Made by a program: the position numbers and the translations under genes. From a virus (lineage: Duplodnaviria > Caudoviricetes): a DNA stretch of 64,000 bases. The notes under the pieces are model-generated. The model made no database searches. It was not told the origin of the DNA and was given only the letters and a program-made list of their open reading frames with translations. Location: the IMG/VR virus record IMGVR_UViG_3300033120_000574, positions 75,129 through 139,128 of that record. The stretch is one strand, 5' to 3'. Below are positions 36,548 through 49,987 of the stretch, one piece after another; within the stretch, counting starts at the first letter, position 1; each line of letters opens with the position of its first letter.

Positions 36548-37378
36548 TTAGCGTCTCCAAATAGGTAGCGCAGGAGCACTCTGTTTTTCCAACAGAGAAC
36601 AGTGTGAACATGAGTTGTCCAAACTCTTATTCATATGTCCGCAAGCATTGCAGGACTTGTAGATCTGCACATTAACTTGTTCTGGTGCAGCTGAAACGTT
36701 CACAACTGGACGACCGTTTCTAAATGCTTCGTACAAATGTGGTTCTTTTGCAGCTGCAATAGGTTCAACAGTAATTTGTTCCTCTCCAGAGGAGACTGTA
36801 TCAGTTGCCACACTTATGGCTTTTCCAGACTTTGTGGACATCAAACGTGATGTCAGTGCTTTCAGGATTTCTTTTGGTGTGGACATATTTACTCCAGTGC
36901 GCGAACTAGGTCCTTGAATACTAGCAGATCGCTCATTTAAAAACAAGTGTTTGATTAGTTTACCATTACTTGCTTGCAGCTTAGCTTTAAATGCAAGCAT
37001 AGTATACTGTTTGATACTTCCTAAAAACTTCGGATTGTTATAGTGCTTTAGGTAAGCAGCCTTGGCTTCTTGCTCAGAGTCGAAGCCAAGCATTACCTTC
37101 TGTTCATCTATTTCTACAAATTCAGGAGCTTTTAGCTGTGTGACTACAAAGACGTTCTCAGCATGCGGGCTTGGTCCCACATAAACATCTACTTCTTCTC
37201 CATCCGTTCCAAGGGTACCACATATGAATCCGTAGGGATTCTGCATGTAAGTAGTACCCTTAGTGTCTGAAAATGGGTCGTACCAGTGTCGTTCTGTTCC
37301 TTGGTCAGTTTCGACACAAATACACAAGTCTTGATATGTAATATGTTTCACTACACACCTCTGTAGAAATCCAACCAA
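36548..37378 (-). CDS. Inorganic pyrophosphatase-like (InPase) domain protein
   Basis: 'YGFICGTLGTDGEEVDVYVGP...VFVVTQ...DEQKVMLGF...AKAAY' is the polyvalent-protein InPase signature. Confidence 0.8.
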   Translation of the reverse strand: MVGFLQRCVVKHITYQDLCICVETDQGTERHWYDPFSDTKGTTYMQNPYGFICGTLGTDGEEVDVYVGPSPHAENVFVVTQLKAPEFVEIDEQKVMLGFDSEQEAKAAYLKHYNNPKFLGSIKQYTMLAFKAKLQASNGKLIKHLFLNERSASIQGPSSRTGVNMSTPKEILKALTSRLMSTKSGKAISVATDTVSSGEEQITVEPIAAAKEPHLYEAFRNGRPVVNVSAAPEQVNVQIYKSCNACGHMNKSLDNSCSHCSLLEKQSAPALPIWRR

Positions 37379-40300
37379 GACTCGTCTTGGTCAAATGAGA
37401 CTTCAAACGTTTTAGTGTCAATGGACTTGGTGAAACCATCTGAATAAGAGGGTTTTGAATTATCTTCAGCTACTTGTGCTTCCGGTTTGTCTTTTCCTGG
37501 TTGTGCACTTGGTGGAGCTGTGCCACCACCAGCAGCTCCAGCAGCTCCGGCAGCAGCCTGCTGTTGCTCTAGTTGCCTACGTTGTTGTTGTGCTGTGGTG
37601 TATGTTGGGTTCAAGATCAAATCTCCATCAGCAACGTCAGGAAGGTCTTCTTGTCTACGAATCTCATTCAGGGTCATGTATGTTGATACTTGTTCCTTAC
37701 GTAGTTCATGCTTTTCTTGCTCTGTGAGTTCATCAAGACCAACAAAATCAAACGTGAAATTGTCGTCCAACTTATTAACCACGTTGTCATTTATCAGCTT
37801 AGCAAGGAAGCGAAGCATTGGCTTAAGCCCACGATCACGAGATGCCTTTAGCTTCCATTCTTGGCTTGATTCGAATAGAGGTGTCTGCTGAACACCGCCA
37901 TGCATGTCAAAGTTCAACTCTGCTGGATCGATCAAAAACACAGCACAGTTGTGTACAGCAAATCTGTGTGCTTGATATGTGTGTTCTCCGTCTACCTCTA
38001 TGTTGTAAACCTTTCCTTCAAAATGGTTTGTGTGAGAAGAAGAGACGGGAACGTAATAATACGTAGCACTTTCATAAATGGTAGAACGCAGTGCAGTCAA
38101 ACTACTCACTCTGTCACGTAACTTGTTACCCTTTGGCCCTCTCAACCAAGTAGCTAGTCTAGCGGAGTAGACACCATTAATATCTAAGCGGTGCAAGTCA
38201 TTAACAGAATTGAAACCAGTGTTTGTTACAGTGTAACGATGGGAATACACATTTTGACGAAACAACAGGTGGCGAATCTGTTCTAGTGCTGTTTTTGACA
38301 CAAGAGACAAAGTACTTACTGCAGCACCAGTGACGAAAGCAGGGACGGACCCGTCTCCTGCGAACACGCCGCTTATGAATGCACGTTGAACTTCTGTAGG
38401 AGCATCAAATAGCATCTTAGGAATCTTTTTCAATACAGCTTTTGAACCAAACAAATTTCCAAGAACATCAGCAACAAGAGAACTGTGCAAACAAATGTTA
38501 GCAGTGCTTTCTTTTGCTGCATAGGTACGAGAGTGTACTCCAATTCTAGTAGCTATGCGTTCAACAGCAGCTACGTACTCTTCTTCATGTTTTGCAAAAG
38601 TAAAGTATGCTGCTGACTCGGTTGTATTTCCTTCAGCTAAATACAACCCAAGAACGTAAGCTAGCTCTTCATCCAAAGCCCAATAACGTTGAATAAATTT
38701 TCCAGCATTTCCTTTAGGTGCAATATGCAAAGCATCAGGTGACACTCTGCAATTAGCGGCTCCCAATACGGCCAAACAATCGATTGTTTGGTCTTTTCCA
38801 ACAAATTCATACGTCTTCTTTGGTATGGTTAAGTAGTCAACGCCTTCAACGATTTCTCCTGCGTTTTTCCACGCAGGCTCACCAAATAGGCGAGAGCCGT
38901 TGTGCAAGGATGAGGAAACAACCCACATAGGATGTTCTGGAGTTACTTCGATGGTTTCTCCTGCTGTAAGGGTAACCAAAGGTCCACAGTATTCTGTGAT
39001 CTGTAAGTTACTCACATTGCGTGGTTGACCTGTGTGAGAAAATACCACATCTCCAGGCACTACAGATTCTATAGCTGTAGTCGACCCGTCTGCCATCGTG
39101 ATTGGTGTATTACCAGTGAAGCAGGTAATCTTGATCAGGTATTCCATCCACATGGAGTACTCCATCTCTTGATTACTTTGATGCAAAGGAACCCAGTCAA
39201 TACCCTGCTCTGATTGCATGATGGGAGTACGCCAAGCGTTGGTGACGCCCTCTACATTGTTCTTCCACTCACGTTTGAACACTTCTAACTGATCTCCAGT
39301 TAGATTGTCTCCCTTTATGTTCAAAATACCTTTCGGGGCTGAATTGGACGTTATACAGCCACCAGCGCTCCACCTATGTCCCTCATGTGTTTGTCTGACA
39401 TCAAACATAGGAACATGTACACCAATCACGTTAATGGATTTAATCTGAATCCATCGATAGTTTAGTGCCTCTTCTTGAGCAGAGGAGCGCAATGCTTTCA
39501 ACTGTGACTTACTTCGTGTGCCACCAGGTACATACCCTATTAACCGTTGTAGTATTCCTTCTTGTGCAAAGCGAGGAATCTTACCACCAGAATCCTTTCG
39601 ATTAGGAGAAACTGTTTTATATGTTTGTAGAAACCCAATCAGAGAAGCAAATTTGTTGTTTTCACAAACACGCAAATAGTGACAAGGTCTACCACTAGCA
39701 TTCATCAAAGAATGAGACAAGCTACTAGATATACCAAGAGACCACAGCAACTGTTGTACGCCAGCAATAAGGTTAGTACTAGAGCTACACACATATGCGT
39801 GAATGCCATTCTTAACGAACCCATCAGCACTGAAGTATCCGCGTAGAAAAGCAGCTCTGTTTTCTACAGTTTCTGCAAATAAACGAGAAGGAACAACTTT
39901 CTCATGTGATGCGGAAGAAGACATCCCAACAACGTTTGTCAAGAAATCAAACAAGCCTTTGTTTCGTATAACCAACGTATCAAGTTTAGTTCCTCCCCAA
40001 TCACCACCACTTTTACGCATATGATGTGATATTCCACGAGAACCAAGCATAGTTCGAAACTTTTCTTGTACCTCTGTGTCTTTGGGAGAGAACACGCAGG
40101 ATGTCGTGTAGTTTCTCTTATTTCCAGCATTTATCGAGCTACGTGTATCAGTTACGTACCCATCACCTACCAAAAATCCAATAAATTCGTAAAAAGGGGC
40201 ATCTAACAACCCTGCGTTTACTGTAGGTTGTTTTGGTTTTTTACCTACCTGAACATAAACAGGGTCTAGTTCATTGAATTCTAACAAGGCTTCACTTTGA

Positions 40301-41487
40301 GCTACAAAATCACCAACACGCAACTCTTGTAATTCCTTCATAACTGCTTGTCCATCACAAGACAAAGACAAGAACTTGTGATTTGGAGAGGTAATTAGAC
40401 TGTAATTGTTAGCCAACCCTACGCTAACAGCCTCTTTGTGGCCAGATGACACTACGTCAGAGGTAACCCACTCAGTTCCATTCCAGCAATCAAATACCTT
40501 TCCAACCAGGGAAGAGATAGGAACCAGCCCATCACGGGTATGAACAGTAGTATCTCCTGCTACACAACCTTGCATGAAAAAGCGTCTGTTGTACTCTTCA
40601 GCGTACAAATGTGCAGTGATTACAGTGATTAGTTGTTCTAGCTCTCCATAACCATAACCTTGCACATAGATGTCAGACCTGGGGTTACGTACACCAAATA
40701 CAAGTTCTTTGTTAGTGTATACGTTACGTTGCTGTCCATTGATTAACTGTACATATGCAGGGACATCATGAAGCTCTGGATTTTGAACCTTCATGGTCTT
40801 ATAGGGCTGGGTCAAGGTCTCAGCATGTCCACGCATCAAAGCATTGGCAGTATGCGTGGCGTGTGCCAGGTCCATATCCATGTGGTTGGATGCAATACGG
40901 ATTGTAGATGCATCTACAGCAAGAAATTCGTATGGCATTCCTTTACGGTCTGGAACCACTTCGAAAGTGGCTTGATCGTACATTAAGCTGTCACGAACAA
41001 GCTTCTTTAGGAAAGTTTCAAAGTCATCACGCACATATGGACTGTGTGGATTTGGGTCTTCAGCACCACAAGCATAGATGAACTTCTCTACAGACTGTAT
41101 GAATTCACGTTCACCTTTAGTCGTTAGTCGTGCGGGGTTCTTGTGTTTAACAGCAAAGCCGAGAGATTTGTTCAAACGAAACGGTGTAGCAAACTGGGCT
41201 ACTTGATTACATCTGGTTTGTAAAATAGCAGAGATGAGTGCTAGCTGCTGGGGAATGCGTTTAAGCGTTTCGTAAGACAACGAATAACGTCTGTCTTTGT
41301 AACCCATTGCAAACTGAATAGACAACGGGTCAAACACCAAAGACTTTGGACCTTTTGCAGCCAACTCTGGATCTAGCTTAGATTTCCTGATTTCTTCGGA
41401 AACCATGGAAGGAATCATGTTTGTAGCATCTCTCCACTTGGAGACGTGCTCAACCCACTTGTCTTGGTCTTTGAATCTGTCACTCAT
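37351..41487 (-). CDS. Portal protein with two inteins (about 578 aa after splicing)
   Basis: 'ILQTRCNQV', 'FLKKLVRDSL', 'RNPRSD..GYGYGELE', 'SRDRGLKPML'. Confidence 0.9.
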   Translation of the reverse strand: MSDRFKDQDKWVEHVSKWRDATNMIPSMVSEEIRKSKLDPELAAKGPKSLVFDPLSIQFAMGYKDRRYSLSYETLKRIPQQLALISAILQTRCNQVAQFATPFRLNKSLGFAVKHKNPARLTTKGEREFIQSVEKFIYACGAEDPNPHSPYVRDDFETFLKKLVRDSLMYDQATFEVVPDRKGMPYEFLAVDASTIRIASNHMDMDLAHATHTANALMRGHAETLTQPYKTMKVQNPELHDVPAYVQLINGQQRNVYTNKELVFGVRNPRSDIYVQGYGYGELEQLITVITAHLYAEEYNRRFFMQGCVAGDTTVHTRDGLVPISSLVGKVFDCWNGTEWVTSDVVSSGHKEAVSVGLANNYSLITSPNHKFLSLSCDGQAVMKELQELRVGDFVAQSEALLEFNELDPVYVQVGKKPKQPTVNAGLLDAPFYEFIGFLVGDGYVTDTRSSINAGNKRNYTTSCVFSPKDTEVQEKFRTMLGSRGISHHMRKSGGDWGGTKLDTLVIRNKGLFDFLTNVVGMSSSASHEKVVPSRLFAETVENRAAFLRGYFSADGFVKNGIHAYVCSSSTNLIAGVQQLLWSLGISSSLSHSLMNASGRPCHYLRVCENNKFASLIGFLQTYKTVSPNRKDSGGKIPRFAQEGILQRLIGYVPGGTRSKSQLKALRSSAQEEALNYRWIQIKSINVIGVHVPMFDVRQTHEGHRWSAGGCITSNSAPKGILNIKGDNLTGDQLEVFKREWKNNVEGVTNAWRTPIMQSEQGIDWVPLHQSNQEMEYSMWMEYLIKITCFTGNTPITMADGSTTAIESVVPGDVVFSHTGQPRNVSNLQITEYCGPLVTLTAGETIEVTPEHPMWVVSSSLHNGSRLFGEPAWKNAGEIVEGVDYLTIPKKTYEFVGKDQTIDCLAVLGAANCRVSPDALHIAPKGNAGKFIQRYWALDEELAYVLGLYLAEGNTTESAAYFTFAKHEEEYVAAVERIATRIGVHSRTYAAKESTANICLHSSLVADVLGNLFGSKAVLKKIPKMLFDAPTEVQRAFISGVFAGDGSVPAFVTGAAVSTLSLVSKTALEQIRHLLFRQNVYSHRYTVTNTGFNSVNDLHRLDINGVYSARLATWLRGPKGNKLRDRVSSLTALRSTIYESATYYYVPVSSSHTNHFEGKVYNIEVDGEHTYQAHRFAVHNCAVFLIDPAELNFDMHGGVQQTPLFESSQEWKLKASRDRGLKPMLRFLAKLINDNVVNKLDDNFTFDFVGLDELTEQEKHELRKEQVSTYMTLNEIRRQEDLPDVADGDLILNPTYTTAQQQRRQLEQQQAAAGAAGAAGGGTAPPSAQPGKDKPEAQVAEDNSKPSYSDGFTKSIDTKTFEVSFDQDESWLDFYRGV
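37948..39123 (-). mobile_element. Intein 2 in the portal (392 aa, LAGLIDADG)
   Basis: CFTGNT...TPEHP...LGLYLAEG...ISGVFAGDG...VHN/C. Confidence 0.9.
39343..40566 (-). mobile_element. Intein 1 in the portal (408 aa, LAGLIDADG)
   Basis: CVAGDT...SPNHKF...IGFLVGDG...LRGYFSADG...TSN/S. Confidence 0.9.
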
Positions 41488-44396: not shown

Positions 44397-44596
44397 TTGC
44401 TTCTTACTCTTTTCTTTATGGAGTCTCGTGAACTTAAGGAACGATTATGCATCCTCCTGGCCTCAACCTGTGCTCTGTGTTCTTTAAGAAACGATTCCTG
44501 TGCTTGTTTACAGTTACATGCAACCAACGTTGCAGAGTCAGCTGCTGGAAGCAAAGTCAGTGCTTCTCCACAGAATTTACACTTGTAAGAAATCAT
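44393..44596 (-). CDS. Small Zn-ribbon protein
   Basis: CKFCG...CNC. Confidence 0.55.
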   Translation of the reverse strand: MISYKCKFCGEALTLLPAADSATLVACNCKQAQESFLKEHRAQVEARRMHNRSLSSRDSIKKRVRSK

Positions 44597-44892
44597 GCTT
44601 TCCTGTGAATGGTCAGTGGTCCAACGTTCCTAGGCTTTCCAAAGGTAGCTTTGGTTAGAAATATCAAGTTATTTATTGGTGCATGTTTCGGCAGCTTCAA
44701 ACTCAAATGAAAGATTTTACCTATCTCTACAGTGTCCTTGAGTGATAGAACGACTTCGTTGTTTAAAAACACCAAACCAGCTTGTAAGTATCTCTTACTT
44801 TCACGAATACTAGTACACATACCAGACAGGTCTAGTACTCTGTAAATTTCTGCATGAGTTGCAGTTCTGCTAGGCCAAGCCACGTATAGCAT
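44593..44892 (-). CDS. Stand-alone S4-like RNA-binding domain (TyrRS C-terminal type)
   Basis: 'LDLSGMCTSIRESKRYLQAGLVFLNNEVV'; likely start MLYVAW. Confidence 0.65.
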   Translation of the reverse strand: MLYVAWPSRTATHAEIYRVLDLSGMCTSIRESKRYLQAGLVFLNNEVVLSLKDTVEIGKIFHLSLKLPKHAPINNLIFLTKATFGKPRNVGPLTIHRKA

Positions 44893-44945: not shown

Positions 44946-44960
44946 TTTGTGAGTTAGTAG

Positions 44961-45032
44961 TTTCCAGTGAAGGACTCGAACCTTCACAGACTTCTTCAGA
45001 GGAAGTTGACCTGCCAATTAGTCGAACCGGAA
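44961..45032 (-). tRNA. tRNA-Gln(CUG)
   Basis: Cloverleaf; loop CT-CTG-AA. Confidence 0.85.
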
Positions 45033-45047
45033 ATATAATAATCTCGA

Positions 45048-45118
45048 AGCCCCGGACGAGAATCGAACTCATGTCTCTCGCTTACAAGACGAGGGTACTG
45101 CCATTGTACTAACAGGGC
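45048..45118 (-). tRNA. tRNA-Thr(UGU)
   Basis: Loop CT-TGT-AA. Confidence 0.85.
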
Positions 45119-45122
45119 AAAG

Positions 45123-45190
45123 AGGGTCTAGTGAGAATCGAACTCACCAACAATGTTTTGCAGACATCGGTCAAACCATTTGTTAGACCC
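45123..45190 (-). tRNA. tRNA-Cys(GCA), short D arm
   Basis: Loop CT-GCA-AA. Confidence 0.75.
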
Positions 45191-45196
45191 AAAAAT

Positions 45197-45270
45197 TGGA
45201 GCGTCTTGCGGGGATCAAACCCGCGCCGAGAGTTTGGAAAACTCCTATGCTATCGCTACACCAAAGACGC
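45197..45270 (-). tRNA. tRNA-Gly(UCC)
   Basis: Loop TT-TCC-AA; encoded CCA. Confidence 0.85.
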
Positions 45271-45274
45271 AAAG

Positions 45275-45346
45275 TACCTTGTAGGAGAGTTGAACTCCTC
45301 TTACCCGATTGAAAGTCGAGAGTCCTTTCCGATAGACGAACAAGGC
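45275..45346 (-). tRNA. tRNA-Glu(UUC)
   Basis: Loop CT-TTC-AA. Confidence 0.85.
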
Positions 45347-45349
45347 ATA

Positions 45350-45421
45350 TGACCCTATTGGGAATCTAACCCAACTTACCTAGTTGAGAACCAGGCTTCT
45401 TGAACACTAGAAGATAGGGCC
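45350..45421 (-). tRNA. tRNA-Glu(CUC)
   Basis: Loop TT-CTC-AA; atypical T-loop TTAGATT. Confidence 0.75.
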
Positions 45422-45864
45422 GTGGCACGTGTACGAGATGCTTTCAAAGGGCACCCACATTATGTACACATTTTTAAGAACCATGTAGCGATTGTAGTAA
45501 GTTTGGAGTCTGCTACATCTGTTGCTTTAACCCACAACAGGGATAGTAACATTCCTTATACACAACTGTGTCCTCACGACAACCTTTTAAAAACTACGTA
45601 GCAGACCCATGCGAAGCAGGGATTTACACCCTTGCAGCGTCACCGCGAACTTCTACACATACCTTAAGTTATATGTGCTGCGTCTTTTCAAAAACTACTT
45701 GGCGATATACTAACTGCTTTGTGTAGTTTTACCTACGCCATCTGCCTCGCACGACACCGCGAGTGTTCCTGTATATCTTTAAAGAACCAATTTTGAGCAC
45801 ACAAGCAGTCAAATATATCGAGGTCTCACGCCCAACTTTGACAACCGCAAGGTTTTTAAGAACT
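45422..45864 (-). ncRNA. Unclassified structured RNA region with periodic boxA-like motifs
   Basis: No ORF in the track; multiple helices; RGTTYTTDAAA motif every 76-114 nt. Confidence 0.55.
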
Positions 45865-45866
45865 CA

Positions 45867-45952
45867 CGAAGAGCTGAATACTCGAAATCCACACCCTTTT
45901 GAGGTGCCATCTGTTTAGCAAACAGTGCTAGTTCCTAACTAGTTAACTCTTC
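45867..45952 (-). tRNA. tRNA-Ser(GCU)
   Basis: Loop TT-GCT-AA; long variable arm. Confidence 0.8.
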
Positions 45953-45980
45953 ATTTTAAGAACCACCAACAACGTTGGTA

Positions 45981-46067
45981 TGGAGAACAGACGAATCGAA
46001 CGCCACACCCTTTTGAGGTGCCCACTCACTTCCAATGAGGTCCAGTCCCAGACATGGTTTACTCTCC
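45981..46067 (-). tRNA. tRNA-Ser(GGA)
   Basis: Loop TT-GGA-AG; long variable arm. Confidence 0.8.
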
Positions 46068-46070
46068 AAA

Positions 46071-46156
46071 CGGTAGATAGAGGTATCGCGCCCCACACCC
46101 GAAAGGGTGCACACTGGTTTCAAAGCAGGTTCGGAGGCTTCTCCGATTTATCTACC
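46071..46156 (-). tRNA. tRNA-Ser(UGA)
   Basis: Loop TT-TGA-AA; long variable arm; atypical T-loop. Confidence 0.7.
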
Positions 46157-46158
46157 AA

Positions 46159-46701
46159 TCAACTTTCATCTACCGCAAGATTCCAGTACAAGTAATCTTT
46201 CCACTCTTTTGGAGAGTTTGATAGACTTACCATGACTTTCTTCTTAGGAGACCAATCCGGTTTCGTAGGAACACTGTGCAGGCGCATCTTAGCCTCTGCA
46301 GGAGTCCTATCCGCCTTCTTACTGTTGCAAGTCAAGCAAGACGTTGTGATGTTGTCCCACACTGTCTTACCACCCTTAGAGCGGGGCAAAACGTGGTCAT
46401 ACGTCAACTTGCTCATAGTGAATGGCTTGTTGCAGTACTGACAAGTGTAGTTGTCTCTTGCGAAGACATTCATCCTAGAGAACTTGATTTTCTCTTTCTT
46501 AGGCTTTACATAGGTTGTCAACCTAAGTACAGCAGGACAACACATAGTGTGATTTGCACTCTTTAGTTCAAAATCAGGGTATTCCTCTATTATGTCAACT
46601 TTCTTCTCAAACCAAAGAACTATGGCTCTTTGCCAAGTAAGAATCTTCATTGGCTCGTACGTAGCGTTCAGTAACAAGACTTTATGTTCTTCAGCTAGCA
46701 T
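46159..46701 (-). CDS. HNH endonuclease (McrA/HNH_5 family)
   Basis: 'LLLNATYEP', 'RDNYTCQYC...TYDHVLPRSKGG...CLTCNSKK'. Confidence 0.9.
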   Translation of the reverse strand: MLAEEHKVLLLNATYEPMKILTWQRAIVLWFEKKVDIIEEYPDFELKSANHTMCCPAVLRLTTYVKPKKEKIKFSRMNVFARDNYTCQYCNKPFTMSKLTYDHVLPRSKGGKTVWDNITTSCLTCNSKKADRTPAEAKMRLHSVPTKPDWSPKKKVMVSLSNSPKEWKDYLYWNLAVDES

Positions 46702-46704
46702 AAA

Positions 46705-46777
46705 TCCACCTGGAGGGAGTTGAACCCACTCATGTCCGCTTATAAGACGGATGCCTAAACCGTTTGGCTTCAGGTGG
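46705..46777 (-). tRNA. tRNA-Ile(UAU)
   Basis: Stem TCCGT/GCGGA; loop CT-TAT-AA. Confidence 0.8.
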
Positions 46778-46779
46778 GT

Positions 46780-46852
46780 ATATCAGCATCGAGAATCGAA
46801 CTCGAACGTTGAAGCGTATGAAACCTAACGACTAGCCACAGTATGCTGATAT
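46780..46852 (-). tRNA. Atypical tRNA(CAU)-like element
   Basis: 9-bp terminal stem, canonical T arm, loop TT-CAT-AC, reduced D arm. Confidence 0.5.
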
Positions 46853-46875
46853 GCAGAGAACCTGCAAGGGAAAAT

Positions 46876-46949
46876 TGGGAGCGATCGCCGGAGTTGAACA
46901 CGGTCCTGAAGCTTATGAGACTTCGGTGCAGCCCTTACACCACCACGCC
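46876..46949 (-). tRNA. tRNA-Met/Ile2(CAU), imperfect acceptor stem
   Basis: Loop CT-CAT-AA; encoded CCA. Confidence 0.6.
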
Positions 46950-46950
46950 A

Positions 46951-46995
46951 TGTCCTAGGAGGGATTCGAACCCTCATGCTTTCGCTACACCAAGT
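46951..46995 (-). pseudogene. 3' half of a type II (Leu-like) tRNA
   Basis: Variable arm, GAGGG-TTCGAAT-CCCTC and acceptor strand; no D arm. Confidence 0.6.
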
Positions 46996-47021
46996 AAAGG
47001 ACAACCAAAACAAGTATGCTA

Positions 47022-47106
47022 TAGAAACGAAGAGATTTGAACTCTTATGCACCTCACAGTGCGTTTGCGTTTGAAGCAAATGTGTAAACCATTCCACCAC
47101 GTTTCC
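47022..47106 (-). tRNA. tRNA-Leu(CAA)
   Basis: Loop TT-CAA-AC; long variable arm. Confidence 0.85.
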
Positions 47107-47116
47107 AAATAAATTT

Positions 47117-47545
47117 ATGCGAAAAAAGTATTCAAGGTACACTAAAGAGCAACTAGAACCTCTTGTTAAAGAGAGCAAATCCTATGCGGAAGTTATAAAG
47201 AAACTAGGTCTTAGGATTTGTGGAGGTAACTACGTGCTCCTACAAAGAAATATAGACAAGTTTCAAATCAGCTGTGAACATATGCTATTCCAAGCAGCGA
47301 ACCAAGGAAGAGAATTTGTAAAATATGAAGAAATTTCGACGCACGCAGCTATAAAGAAACGTATTCTACGAGAACGAGGACTTGTCTGTGAGGGGTGTAA
47401 TTTAGACACCTGGTTAGGTAAGCCTATTACCTTAGAGATGGATCATATAGATGGGGACAACAGGAACAACACAAAAACAAACATAAGAATTTTGTGTCCA
47501 AATTGTCACAGTCAAACTCCAACTTGGAAGAACAACAAGAAGTAA
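47117..47545 (+). CDS. HNH homing endonuclease, antisense to the tRNA operon
   Basis: 'CEGC...LEMDHIDGDNRNN...LCPNCHSQT'. Confidence 0.9.
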   Translation: MRKKYSRYTKEQLEPLVKESKSYAEVIKKLGLRICGGNYVLLQRNIDKFQISCEHMLFQAANQGREFVKYEEISTHAAIKKRILRERGLVCEGCNLDTWLGKPITLEMDHIDGDNRNNTKTNIRILCPNCHSQTPTWKNNKK

Positions 47546-47567
47546 GTACCAGTTCCACCACACGGAC
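47546..47567 (-). pseudogene. 5' fragment of a Leu-like tRNA
   Basis: GTCCGTG-TG-GTGGAACTGGTAC, ending at the HNH stop codon. Confidence 0.6.
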
Positions 47568-47655
47568 ATTCAAAATTGGTTGCCAGTTTAACTGTTACGT
47601 AAAGCACTTCTAGCAAGAAGCTTAGATTTATATTGTCACCCTAATCCAAGGGTGT

Positions 47656-47735
47656 TGCAGTTGGAGAGATTCGAACTCTCATACCGAAGCGGGAAATCTT
47701 AAAGATCCTGTGTATGCCAATTCCACCACAACTGC
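47656..47735 (-). tRNA. tRNA-Leu(UAA)
   Basis: Leu-type D loop; loop TT-TAA-GA; weak anticodon stem. Confidence 0.7.
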
Positions 47736-47749
47736 ATTTAGTTTATCAA

Positions 47750-47833
47750 TGACACAGGTGAGAGTCGAACTCACAAGAGGAATTACCCACAACAGTTTCT
47801 AAGACTGCCCGCTCGCCGTTGGCGTACTGTGCC
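47750..47833 (-). tRNA. tRNA-Leu(UAG)
   Basis: Loop CT-TAG-AA. Confidence 0.8.
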
Positions 47834-47838
47834 GTAAA

Positions 47839-47910
47839 TACCAGATTAGGGAATCGAACCCAACTATATCACTGTGTAAAAGTGGTGCCTACCCAGTCAG
47901 CTTATCTGGC
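47839..47910 (-). tRNA. tRNA-Val(UAC)
   Basis: Loop TT-TAC-AC. Confidence 0.85.
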
Positions 47911-47915
47911 ATACT

Positions 47916-47987
47916 CGTTGTTGAAGAGAATCGAACTCTTATTTAAACTTTAGGAAAGTCTTGCTCTATCCGTTGAACTACAACAAC
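47916..47987 (-). tRNA. tRNA-Arg(CCU)
   Basis: Loop TT-CCT-AA. Confidence 0.85.
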
Positions 47988-47990
47988 AGA

Positions 47991-48034
47991 CGCTTTTGTT
48001 TGGACTTGAACCTACCACTTGACGCCAAATCAAA
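47991..48034 (-). pseudogene. 3' portion of a degenerate tRNA
   Basis: Hairpin, GG-TTCAAGT-CC and CAAAAGC-G. Confidence 0.55.
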
Positions 48035-48046
48035 ATTGAATTATAC

Positions 48047-48121
48047 CGTCCTTGGTAGGAATCGAACCTACAAAATTGCTTGTTTAGAAGACAAGTGTTC
48101 TATCCGTTGAACTACAAGGAC
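48047..48121 (-). tRNA. tRNA-Arg(UCU)
   Basis: Loop CT-TCT-AA. Confidence 0.85.
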
Positions 48122-48125
48122 AAAA

Positions 48126-48665
48126 ATGATATCAGTAACATGTGAAAACTGTAGCAAAGAATTCTTCAAGAATAAGTCTGAAGCTGCTCGGAGCCCTAGA
48201 CACTTTTGTAGCAGGTCTTGTGCAAATAGCAAGCACAACACCGAGAAAGCAAAACGAAGTAAGAAGCAAAGAACATGTACTCTATGTACAAAGAGTTACA
48301 TACAAACAAAAGCGAGACGCAAGATATGTGAAGTTTGTTTTGTTCCACCACTCTGTAAAGATAACATGACACTCAGTCAGTGTAAGGACAAATTAAGTGT
48401 TCAAGGCAAGCACCCATCATGGTACACTGTGCACGTAAGAGGACATAATAGAACGAAGAATAAAAAGCTAGCTACTAGCTGCCAGAAATGTGGGTACAGT
48501 AAACATGTAGAGTGTTGTCATATCAAACCAGTCGCAAGTTTTGAAGGCAATGCAACGTTGGCTGAAATTAATCATGTGGACAATATTGTTGTTTTATGTA
48601 GAAATTGTCACTGGGAGTTTGACCACAATCAACTAAGCATAGTAGATATTCCAAAGCGTAAGTAA
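48126..48665 (+). CDS. HNH endonuclease with Zn fingers, antisense to the tRNA operon
   Basis: 'CENC..FCSRSC', 'CQKCG..CHIKP..N..VLCRNCHWEFD'. Confidence 0.85.
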   Translation: MISVTCENCSKEFFKNKSEAARSPRHFCSRSCANSKHNTEKAKRSKKQRTCTLCTKSYIQTKARRKICEVCFVPPLCKDNMTLSQCKDKLSVQGKHPSWYTVHVRGHNRTKNKKLATSCQKCGYSKHVECCHIKPVASFEGNATLAEINHVDNIVVLCRNCHWEFDHNQLSIVDIPKRK

Positions 48666-48692
48666 TTACGCTATCCTTTGTGCTACAAAAGC
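48666..48692 (-). pseudogene. 5' fragment of an Arg-like tRNA
   Basis: GCTTTTG-TA-GCAC-AAAGGATA-GCGT, ending at the HNH stop codon. Confidence 0.6.
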
Positions 48693-48694
48693 AA

Positions 48695-48769
48695 GCCTAG
48701 GTAGAGGGATTTGAACCCCTCATTTCACGGTTCGTAGCCGCGCGTGGTATCCGTTACACTATACCTAGA
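48695..48769 (-). tRNA. tRNA-Arg(ACG)
   Basis: Loop CT-ACG-AA. Confidence 0.85.
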
Positions 48770-48771
48770 TA

Positions 48772-48843
48772 AGCCGCCACAGGTACTTGAAACCTGTTTT
48801 CCTCCATACCAAGGAGGTACATCACCATATATGTTTTAGCGGC
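48772..48843 (-). tRNA. tRNA-Thr(GGU)
   Basis: Loop TT-GGT-AT. Confidence 0.85.
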
Positions 48844-48846
48844 ACA

Positions 48847-48919
48847 TGGACAAGACTGGACTCGAACCAGCGGTCTTCTGAGTGCAAGTCAGAGGTTTTC
48901 CCAACTAAACTACTCGCCC
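48847..48919 (-). tRNA. tRNA-Ala(UGC)
   Basis: Loop CT-TGC-AC. Confidence 0.85.
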
Positions 48920-48930
48920 AATTAAAACTG

Positions 48931-49040
48931 ACGAAATTGTTACCATTACAACACATTGCCACTGCAGTGAATTCAAGACTAATCAAGCAAAATTACGCCC
49001 ATAGTCTTAACAATGCTGGGAATCGAACCCAGGTCTTCGT
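48931..49040 (-). ncRNA. Circularly permuted tRNA-mimic (YrlA-type Y RNA-like)
   Basis: Order 5'->3': terminal stem, T arm, closed acceptor-like stem, D arm, terminal stem. Confidence 0.65.
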
Positions 49041-49045
49041 ACTTC

Positions 49046-49113
49046 CACGTTATATAGGAATCGAACCTATGATGAAAAGTTTTGGAGGCTTCTCTGTGCC
49101 CAGCACCTAACGT
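49046..49113 (-). tRNA. tRNA-Trp(CCA), short D arm
   Basis: Loop CT-CCA-AA. Confidence 0.7.
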
Positions 49114-49131
49114 ATACAAGCTAAGATAAGA

Positions 49132-49203
49132 AGTGACTGACGGGAATTGAACCCGCTAATACCTGATTCACAATCAAGCGCTTGGCCATTTAGCTTCAGC
49201 CAC
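49132..49203 (-). tRNA. tRNA-His(GUG)
   Basis: Loop TT-GTG-AA. Confidence 0.85.
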
Positions 49204-49204
49204 A

Positions 49205-49275
49205 CGCTCCATAGGGGAATCGAACCCCTCTCAACTTGGAGACAACAAGTCCGCAACCCAGTTGCGCAATGGAGC
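49205..49275 (-). tRNA. tRNA-Asp(GUC)
   Basis: Loop TT-GTC-TC (U37). Confidence 0.75.
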
Positions 49276-49330
49276 AGGCACGGCATCTTACTTTTTTGGG
49301 GTGCGTCAGCTAGCCGTAATCGACCCACAG

Positions 49331-49403
49331 TGCCATCGACTGGACTCGAACCAGCATTTATGTCCGGTTAAAAGCCGGGTACCAACCTTTAGGTGACGAT
49401 GGC
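49331..49403 (-). tRNA. tRNA-Lys(UUU)
   Basis: Loop CT-TTT-AA. Confidence 0.85.
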
Positions 49404-49406
49404 AAA

Positions 49407-49481
49407 TCCAAGCAGAAGGAATCGAACCTGTCAATCTCTCGCTTATCAGGCAAGCGTATATAACCACTATACTATGCTTGG
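49407..49481 (-). tRNA. tRNA-Ile(GAU)
   Basis: Loop CT-GAT-AA. Confidence 0.85.
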
Positions 49482-49486
49482 GTTAG

Positions 49487-49558
49487 TCCAGCTAAGAAGA
49501 TTCGAACTTCTATTGTCCTGTACCCAAAACAGGTGGGTTACCGTTACCCTATAGCTAG
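49487..49558 (-). tRNA. tRNA-Pro(UGG)
   Basis: Loop TT-TGG-GT. Confidence 0.85.
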
Positions 49559-49564
49559 ATGAAA

Positions 49565-49649
49565 TGCCCCATGGAAGGAATCGAACCTCACAGCCTAACG
49601 GCACGTGGTTTACAGCCACGGGGATGTTCCAACATCCGGATCACAGGAC
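49565..49649 (-). tRNA. tRNA-Tyr(GUA)
   Basis: Loop CT-GTA-AA; long variable arm. Confidence 0.8.
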
Positions 49650-49653
49650 AAAG

Positions 49654-49726
49654 TGCAACCTACTGGAATCGAACCAATTTGTCTTGTTCTTCAGACAAGC
49701 GCATTAACCATAATTGCTTAGGTTGC
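49654..49726 (-). tRNA. tRNA-Phe(GAA)
   Basis: Loop CT-GAA-GA. Confidence 0.85.
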
Positions 49727-49731
49727 ATTGA

Positions 49732-49806
49732 CTGGGACGGCAGGAGTCGAACCTGCAATCACTATATTAACAGTATAGCCGTCGCGCCGATATGACGAAC
49801 ATCCCA
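49732..49806 (-). tRNA. tRNA-Asn(GUU)
   Basis: Loop CT-GTT-AA. Confidence 0.85.
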
Positions 49807-49821
49807 ATAATCTAACTCTTA

Positions 49822-49838
49822 TTCAGTTTTCAAAAAGT
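49822..49838 (-). promoter_or_regulatory. rrn-type boxA-like antitermination site
   Basis: ACTTTTTGAAAACTGAA, resembling rrn leader boxA (GTTCTTTGAAAACT); near the 5' end of the RNA operon. Confidence 0.55.
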
Positions 49839-49913
49839 TTCCAGGGTAGGATTCGAACCTACGACCATCAGTTTCAAAGACTGAGTACACGTGCCAGCAG
49901 CGTAGACCTGGAA
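49838..49913 (-). tRNA. tRNA-Gln(UUG)
   Basis: Loop CT-TTG-AA. Confidence 0.85.
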
Positions 49914-49914
49914 G

Positions 49915-49987
49915 TGGTAACGAAGGGAATCGAACCCTCTATGGCTTGCTTAAGAGGCAAGTGCTTATCCAGTTTAGCTTCGTTACC
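49915..49987 (-). tRNA. tRNA-Lys(CUU)
   Basis: Loop CT-CTT-AA. Confidence 0.9.

Follow-up and report, generated by a model that had tools for sequence, protein, structure and literature searches.

Five structured RNA modules with a shared leader motif in the tRNA array of an uncultured phage

What occupies the 445 nt that separate tRNA-Ser(GCU) from tRNA-Glu(CUC) in the tRNA array of this phage? The original prediction, made from the sequence alone, placed in this slot an undescribed set of five unrelated structured RNA units, each preceded by a boxA-like 12-mer and inside the tRNA operon, and left open whether they would be separate cassettes processed like tRNAs or parts of one large switchable noncoding RNA. 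We examined the slot in the window (the 64 kb that end the 139,128-bp virus record; G+C content, 44%) and in related phages.

The slot in its operon and in a relative

The tRNA array runs along the minus strand at 44960-49987 and comprises 25 genes by default ARAGORN, or about 30 with relaxed settings. A sigma-70-like promoter candidate (TTGACA-17-TAGCAT with TG, at 50045-50017) and a terminator candidate (a strong hairpin followed by a U run, at 44941-44919) frame the array, and a scan of the slot itself (45422-45866) found no promoter or terminator. The array thus has the appearance of a single ~5-kb operon, and from these signals we infer that the cassettes in the slot are co-transcribed with the tRNAs. 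On the 3' side, the slot ends at tRNA-Glu(CUC) (45350-45421, minus strand). On the 5' side, it begins after a non-canonical tRNA-Ser(GCU) with a long D stem and a long variable arm (45867-45952, minus strand), which is undetected by default ARAGORN and by the Rfam tRNA model and is found by relaxed ARAGORN; its orthologue in a more distant relative (L003) scores 46.8 bits on the tRNA-Sec model, almost at threshold. Within 45422-45866, Rfam at E ≤ 10 called no tRNA, and neither did ARAGORN when run with a threshold of 80%, with introns allowed or in mitochondrial mode. An HNH endonuclease gene lies inside the array (46159-46701), and a gene for an S4-domain-like protein of 99 residues (44593-44892, minus strand) directly follows the last tRNA; the latter is also found in all syntenic relatives, at 45-71% identity.

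Public phage records yielded nothing when searched with the stretch or with a neighboring protein, and a 495-amino-acid neighbor protein used as an anchor among viral contigs recovered no relatives. An exact tRNA-Ser variable-arm pattern gave zero matches, a tRNA-Ser(GCU) anticodon-arm pattern matched unrelated arrays only, the HNH protein matched 80 loci in viral contigs at ≤49% identity, none of them informative, and a two-part pattern from the core of one module (U4, below) had no match in viral and genome contigs. Anchoring on neighboring proteins did recover a family of uncultured phages in which the tRNA array is syntenic and the genes around it are in the same order. Across the retrieved loci, nhmmer searches with each module and a U4 covariance model matched a single one, L196, a 6.5-kb metagenome contig that is the only close relative found. 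Its S4-like and HNH proteins are 71% and 82% identical to those of the window, and it has the same layout, with 436 nt between tRNA-Ser(GCU) and tRNA-Glu(CUC). These two tRNAs are 98% and 100% identical between the phages; the tRNAs as a whole are 90-100% identical, except for the last, tRNA-Gln(CUG), at 67%.

The tRNA-Ser(GCU) is one of a trio of non-canonical tRNA-Ser genes on the minus strand, with a UGA-like gene at 46070-46155 and a GGA gene at 45981-46067; all three are overlooked by default ARAGORN and by the Rfam tRNA model and are 91-100% identical in L196, and the acceptor stem of the UGA-like gene carries a compensatory change relative to L196. A class II-sized tRNA with the anticodon UUA, which would read the UAA stop codon, lies at 47654-47736 (minus strand) and again in L196 (2940-3021), and L003 has a tRNA-Leu(UAA) near the corresponding position. 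A tRNA-Cys(GCA) at 45122-45191 (minus strand) is missed by default ARAGORN, found in mitochondrial mode, and scores 28 bits with Rfam, where the threshold is 29. Between the second and third tRNAs of the operon, a spacer element, (U)GAAAACUGAAUA(G/A) (49808-49836, minus strand), recurs in the tRNA arrays of otherwise different phages (L003:12422 and 18622; L203:2505; L101:2063) and could be a boxA-type or processing signal. Outside the array, the portal protein gene (37351-41487, minus strand) has 1378 codons, about twice its homologue in the genome of L003, and the matches of its extra middle part to PHROGs for endonucleases and helicases suggest that the gene contains at least one intein or has taken up a mobile element.

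A repeated leader motif

All six predicted 12-mers were located on the minus strand, between 45471 and 45964, with the consensus R-GTT-Y-TT-W-AAA-R. Copy 1 (GGTTCTTAAAAT, 45953-45964) is the 5' leader of tRNA-Ser(GCU) and, as had been claimed, directly adjoins the 5' end of that gene. Copy 2 (AGTTCTTAAAAA, 45853-45864) stands after this tRNA, where it is kept in L196 and, in degenerate form, in L003, and copies 3 (GGTTCTTTAAAG, 45777-45788), 4 (AGTTTTTGAAAA, 45685-45696), 5 (AGTTTTTAAAAG, 45584-45595) and 6 (GGTTCTTAAAAA, 45471-45482) follow, also on the minus strand. The strict pattern RGTTYTTRAAAR has 4 matches against 0.30 expected, a number reached in 0 of 100 shuffles. Allowing one mismatch, GTTYTTAAAA has six same-strand copies within less than 500 nt (45472-45963), and its exact form occurs four times in the entire 139,128-bp genome, each time within this stretch.

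L196 carries five copies at equivalent places (GTTATTAAAA, CTTTTTAAAA, GTTATTGAAA, GTTTTTTAAA and GTTCTTAAAA). The consensus kept across both phages is R-G-U-U-N-U-U-N-A-A-A, and its R-G-U-U start is present in six of six window copies and four of five in L196. In both phages, modules 2-5 and tRNA-Ser(GCU) have stems whose first base lies where the motif ends or beside it. A test of contiguous closing stems beside the motif against shuffles gave only a modest result (p of 0.018 in the window and 0.001 in L196).

What might such a motif do? One reading is that the copies are working boxA elements, which would recruit NusB/NusE(S10) and the Nus complex to the elongating polymerase, keep Rho from terminating transcription where the untranslated operon is least structured, and tether the 5' strand of each closing stem close to the RNA exit channel; in a variant of this reading, they would act as a sponge for host Nus factors. 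The motif resembles the boxA of rRNA operons and lambda nut in being a linear, U-then-A-rich 11-mer that immediately precedes the 5' strand of a long-range stem, as every copy does, within an untranslated and highly structured operon. The published gamma-proteobacterial boxA consensus is GYTCTTTAANA (PMC5725501). Against this consensus, from which that of the host may differ, copy 3 is the best match, at 10 of 11 positions, and copies 1, 2 and 6 also agree at 10 of 11, deviating at position 7 only. Lambda nut boxA itself deviates from the consensus at position 7. The layout also parallels that of the rRNA operon, in which boxA and the 16S processing stem are so arranged that the 5' strand stays tethered until its 3' partner is made, with S4 discussed as an annealing factor (PMC8632103); here, the gene for the S4-domain protein comes immediately after the array. 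Against boxA, C at consensus position 4 is not conserved, being present in just 5 of the 11 copies across the window phage and L196, and a boxA mutant that lost SuhB association, C4T/T6C, had C4 changed, together with T6 (PMC5725501). BoxA normally occurs as one copy per leader or spacer near the 5' end of an operon, whereas here six copies fall within 500 nt near the 3' end, and neither boxB nor boxC is evident. We consider a boxA function unlikely.

RNase E prefers to cleave single-stranded RN|WUU. The R-G-U-U followed by U or A in the motif fits this preference, and its A run meets the 5' strand of a stem just as a tRNA leader meets the acceptor stem; the motif may serve as an RNase E-type cut site or an RNase P leader as well as, or better than, as boxA. 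Our preferred reading, on sequence grounds, is that it is processing punctuation. A further candidate, in which the copies pair with one another as RNase III stems, was rejected; only short A-U pairings are possible among them.

Five modules and their homologues

Copies 2-6 are followed by five non-tRNA modules of 49-102 nt on the minus strand, which we call U1 to U5, and the L196 slot holds recognizable homologues of four of them. The exception is U1 (45789-45852; 64 nt), the least conserved, which shares only its ends with the first L196 module, V1; it has no convincing terminal stem, and its interior is not conserved. U2 (45697-45777; homologue V3, nhmmer E = 0.03) has a 7-bp, acceptor-like stem (45777-45771 with 45710-45704) followed by G-CCA (45703-45700), with hairpin A at 45763-45746 and a variable-arm-like hairpin B at 45736-45723. 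U3 (45596-45685; homologue V2, by alignment) pairs its ends (45683-45676 with 45603-45596) and contains a T-arm-like hairpin, GGG-UGUAAAU-CCC, at 45635-45616. U4 (45483-45584; homologue V4, nhmmer E = 3e-18) forms a three-way junction, with a closing stem of 45583-45573 and 45501-45491 and a conserved tail, CAATCGCTACA, at 45494-45484. U5 (45422-45470; homologue V5, by alignment) consists of a 7-bp closing stem (45470-45464 with 45434-45428) around a hairpin (45456-45435) whose loop contains CCUUUG, and its tail, (U)GCCAC, leads straight into tRNA-Glu(CUC). G-CC follows the stem in U2, V3, U5 and V5, while the ordinary tRNA genes of this phage encode no CCA; L196 has U in place of the A of the U2 CCA. 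The end pairings originally proposed are all present, with one mismatch each in U3 and U4, except that GTCAAA/TTTGAC of U1 proved to be internal rather than terminal.

Folding energies are unremarkable: the modules do not fold better than shuffled controls (z is -1.2 over the full 445 nt and ranges from +0.2 to -1.9 in the single units; V5 of L196 reaches -2.9 in minimum free energy), and had this been the only criterion, the finding would not have stood. Stronger support than any shuffle test comes from the comparison with L196, in which the closing stems of U2, U4 and U5 covary, in line with the covariation check proposed at the outset. The U4/V4 closing stem has three double compensatory changes (by RNAalifold) and that of U5/V5 has two. 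In U2/V3, the stem reads GAUAUAC/GUAUAUC in the window and AUCACUA/CAGUGAC in L196, so that none of the five central pairs is lost and four are preserved by double changes, in a hand-made, ungapped alignment anchored on the motif and the following GCC. Hairpin B of U2 adds one compensatory change, G-C to A-U, under an invariant GUAAAA loop, and hairpin A and the U5 hairpin keep their positions with different stem sequences. As only two lineages carry the modules, the covariation rests on a single pairwise comparison, and the evidence base is thin.

The modules are not equally constrained. The core of U4 (45570-45501), with its loops and unpaired stretches, is identical to L196 at 68 of 70 positions. 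At third codon positions, the flanking HNH and S4-like genes reach just 55% and 45% identity; U4 is thus under purifying selection. The core of U2 is also conserved, and together with the conserved loops and single strands of U4 this implies a sequence-specific partner. A simple search for targets in trans of the conserved loops gave nothing informative. U1 and much of U3, at 60-62% identity, are almost neutral.

Could U4 be conserved because it encodes a protein? The slot had been described as free of open reading frames, and a 30-codon frame does begin at 45552; such a frame would encode a peptide of 26-30 residues, MLLSLLWVKA-T/A-DVADSK..., is ATG initiated, and is open in both phages, and of the two substitutions in the core one is synonymous and the other changes T to A. 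The sequence AAGGA, however, sits right against the ATG, leaving no usable Shine-Dalgarno spacing, and invariance is just as strict over the preceding 18 nt. The conserved tail CAATCGCTACA falls in different frames in the window phage and L196, and the window frame continues through the next motif into U5. A micro-ORF is therefore a most improbable source of the constraint, and we rejected it.

The order of the modules separates the two forms of the original prediction. In L196, U2 and U3 are reversed, with the U3 homologue second (V2) and the U2 homologue third (V3). The motif, the module architectures and the covarying stems are kept through this swap, which indicates that the modules are real and probably excised like tRNAs, and the prediction of separate structured cassettes in one tRNA operon holds up well. 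The single switchable RNA fares poorly. A 13-bp helix between U3 and U4, proposed as its switch, does exist, but 16 of 60 shuffles contain helices of at least 13 bp, and its 5' partner is absent in L196. With this helix at chance level and unconserved, and with module order variable, separate cassettes are favored over one large RNA, and we rejected the helix as a switch.

Descent, kinship and possible function

Are the modules truly new RNAs? No credible Rfam hit at E ≤ 10 was found in the window stretch or in its L196 homologue, only noise with E above 2, in agreement with the view that the RNAs are undescribed; the families covered included GOLLD, ROOL, tmRNA, Y RNA, 6S, SRP, RNase P, ribozymes and riboswitches. 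To call the units unrelated, as was done at first, is nonetheless too strong, because they retain similarity to the neighboring tRNA-Ser genes. Part of U1 (45833-45813) is similar (z = 4.8) to the T arm and the 3' end of the acceptor in the tRNA-Ser(UGA)-like gene upstream. V4 aligns with the 3' strand of the D arm, the anticodon arm and the start of the variable arm of tRNA-Ser(GCU) (z = 3.5). U2 retains CAGAUGGC, followed by the variable-arm-like hairpin, the 7-bp acceptor-like stem and a discriminator G (p of about 0.03). With these traces, the modules look like diverged duplicates of units made of a leader and a class II tRNA.

Such descent raises the possibility that they are nothing more than decaying pseudo-tRNAs, left over from tandem duplication of a leader with its tRNA-Ser, in which stems and leader persist only because clean cutting of the operon transcript still depends on them. 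Beyond the residual similarity itself, this reading could draw on the conserved HNH gene ~200 nt upstream of copy 1, for which there is a precedent in phage T6, where SegB, a homing endonuclease, drives segmental amplification of the tRNA region (PMC13096335). The slot is, moreover, empty in some relatives, and U1 and much of U3 are near neutral. Pseudogenes would not, however, be expected to show the tRNA-like conservation of the U4 core or the conserved core and hairpin B loop of U2, and they would lose the stems that compensatory changes have kept here; the modules also move as units. We regard decay as an unlikely account of the set.

The slot is empty in L001/L189, L184, L202/L203 and L205, and protein genes occupy it elsewhere: those for a zinc-ribbon protein and a metalloprotease in L191, and for peptide deformylase in L003 and the L198 group, the latter also with an M10 peptidase. 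The modules are thus dispensable for the array. In L003/L008 and L198-L201, some 280 nt after tRNA-Ser(GCU) are noncoding, and here, in the homologous slot, lies an RNA of ~230 nt that resembles RNase P RNA (L003:17673-17905 and L198:6467-6700; also in L008, L199-L201 and the start of L208). In local comparison with Escherichia coli M1 RNA, the three best matches of this RNA are in colinear order and correspond to CR-I, J5/15-P15 and CR-IV/V. The L003/L198 RNA can be drawn with P1-P5, the bulged U of P4 and a specificity domain that is greatly reduced; between the two phages, several helices show covariation. A crude chaining test gave a weak z of 1.9, and the RNase P model RF00010 did not detect the L003 RNA. 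On these features, it is probably a miniature RNase P RNA.

This neighbor bears on the modules because U3 (45663-45631) resembles its P3/CR-I part in L003 at 25 of 33 nt (E = 0.002; z = 4.9), and U4 contains AGGAATGT, which it shares with the CR-IV-like stretch of the same RNA. Taken with the 13-bp U3-U4 helix, these matches could mean that the slot encodes one larger RNA, related to the miniature RNase P-like RNA but highly derived or fragmented, whose pieces pair across the motif copies. Compared with RNase P RNA, though, the window RNAs are divided into modules and have no CR-IV or CR-V, and a search of the window stretch for the 3' strand of P4 in a CR-V context found none. The CR-I-like string of U3 is lost in V2, and every Rfam model, RF00010 included, is silent. 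RF00010 also had no match over the whole genome of the window phage or over 49 of the viral records recovered with the HNH protein, and a search for the CR-I-like pattern gave 64 matches, all of them chance occurrences in coding sequence except those in the L003/L008 contigs. With the helix unconserved and the module order different, L196 largely refutes a single large RNA already, and we give this reading very little credence; a split or permuted RNase P RNA in the window was rejected on the missing P4 partner and the string lost in L196. A fragment of the RNase P-like RNA may still be present in the modules, beside their tRNA-Ser ancestry.

Two known groups of RNAs invite comparison. Y RNAs and YrlA, the partners of Ro60/Rsr, are likewise modular, with a closing stem and tRNA-like parts, and occur in phage tRNA regions. 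Genes for Ro60 (TROVE plus vWA_Ro60) occur in the tRNA arrays of several relatives (L198:7516-8555+, L205:6478-8052, L206, L207 and probably L003:18621-20317), and these arrays also carry genes for PTH2-like proteins, M10 peptidase and peptide deformylase. The window genome, in contrast, has no TROVE/Ro60 gene in its record, which is 82% complete, and no Rfam Y RNA match, and a Ro60/Y RNA system was set aside on this ground. The closer parallel is with rnaC and rnaD of phage T4, non-tRNA RNAs of ~120-140 nt that are encoded at the 3' end of the tRNA cluster, on the same strand as the tRNAs and beside a homing endonuclease gene, and are partly tRNA-like (rnaC with a T arm, rnaD with a CCA end), with no function annotated. 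T4 has two such RNAs and no repeated leader motif, whereas here there are five shorter modules, separated by the 11-12-mer and open to reordering, and there is no sequence similarity between the two sets. Judged from the sequence, U1 to U5 are non-tRNA structured RNA genes on the tRNA strand of what looks like one transcription unit, and as such the set appears to belong to a long-known and unexplained class, the small stable RNAs of phage tRNA clusters.

We propose the following model. Five independently folding RNAs of 49-102 nt, derived from duplicated tRNA-Ser-type genes and possibly from an RNase P-like piece, would be transcribed within the ~5-kb tRNA operon. A conserved, single-stranded, A/U-rich 11-12-mer would precede each of them and end directly at, or about one base at most from, the start of the terminal stem that closes the module. 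The polycistronic transcript would be cut at this 11-12-mer, with R-G-U-U acting as an RNase E-type RN|WUU site, and the A run of the motif would remain as a 5' leader for RNase P, which would act at the stem. The closing stems, with the G-CC tails in U2 and U5, would make the modules tRNA-like substrates with protected ends, so that stable tRNA-like RNAs are released. Such processing fits their anatomy, with a leader beside the closing stem and G-CC tails in two modules, and the tails would favor RNase P recognition of substrates that have no T-arm elbow. The cleavage sites and the function are proposed from the anatomy and the comparison, and we give about even odds to the model as a whole, in which five tRNA-derived RNAs are cut from the operon at a shared leader and serve as tRNA mimics.

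What the released RNAs do is a guess. The tRNA-like design and the company kept in the slot and its surroundings in relatives (Ro60, peptidyl-tRNA hydrolase, deformylase and the RNase P-like RNA) point to tRNA or translation biology, and our best guess, held with low confidence, is tRNA mimicry or decoy action, in which the modules would compete for host factors that bind or cleave tRNAs. A more specific version, which we put forward only as a speculation and think improbable as it stands, is that they are exchangeable decoys, released at the shared leader by host tRNA-processing enzymes. Each would mimic a different part of a class II tRNA (the variable arm, an extended anticodon arm, or the acceptor with G-CC), would soak up defense factors that cleave or bind tRNAs, and could be swapped at the 11-12-mer.

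Large phages carry long tRNA arrays, and T4 rnaC and rnaD have sat in one for decades without an assigned function. In relatives, the probable miniature RNase P RNA in the slot and the genes for Ro60, peptidyl-tRNA hydrolase and peptide deformylase in the array make the locus look like a hot spot for cargo related to tRNA and translation. Host defenses that cleave tRNAs are known, as are phage tRNAs that counter them (PMC13096335), which makes a decoy role for the modules directly testable. The shared leader, the stem-closed modules, their apparent descent from tRNA-Ser, the selection on U4 and the reshuffling of modules between phages together point to a system that would make and exchange tRNA-like small RNAs.
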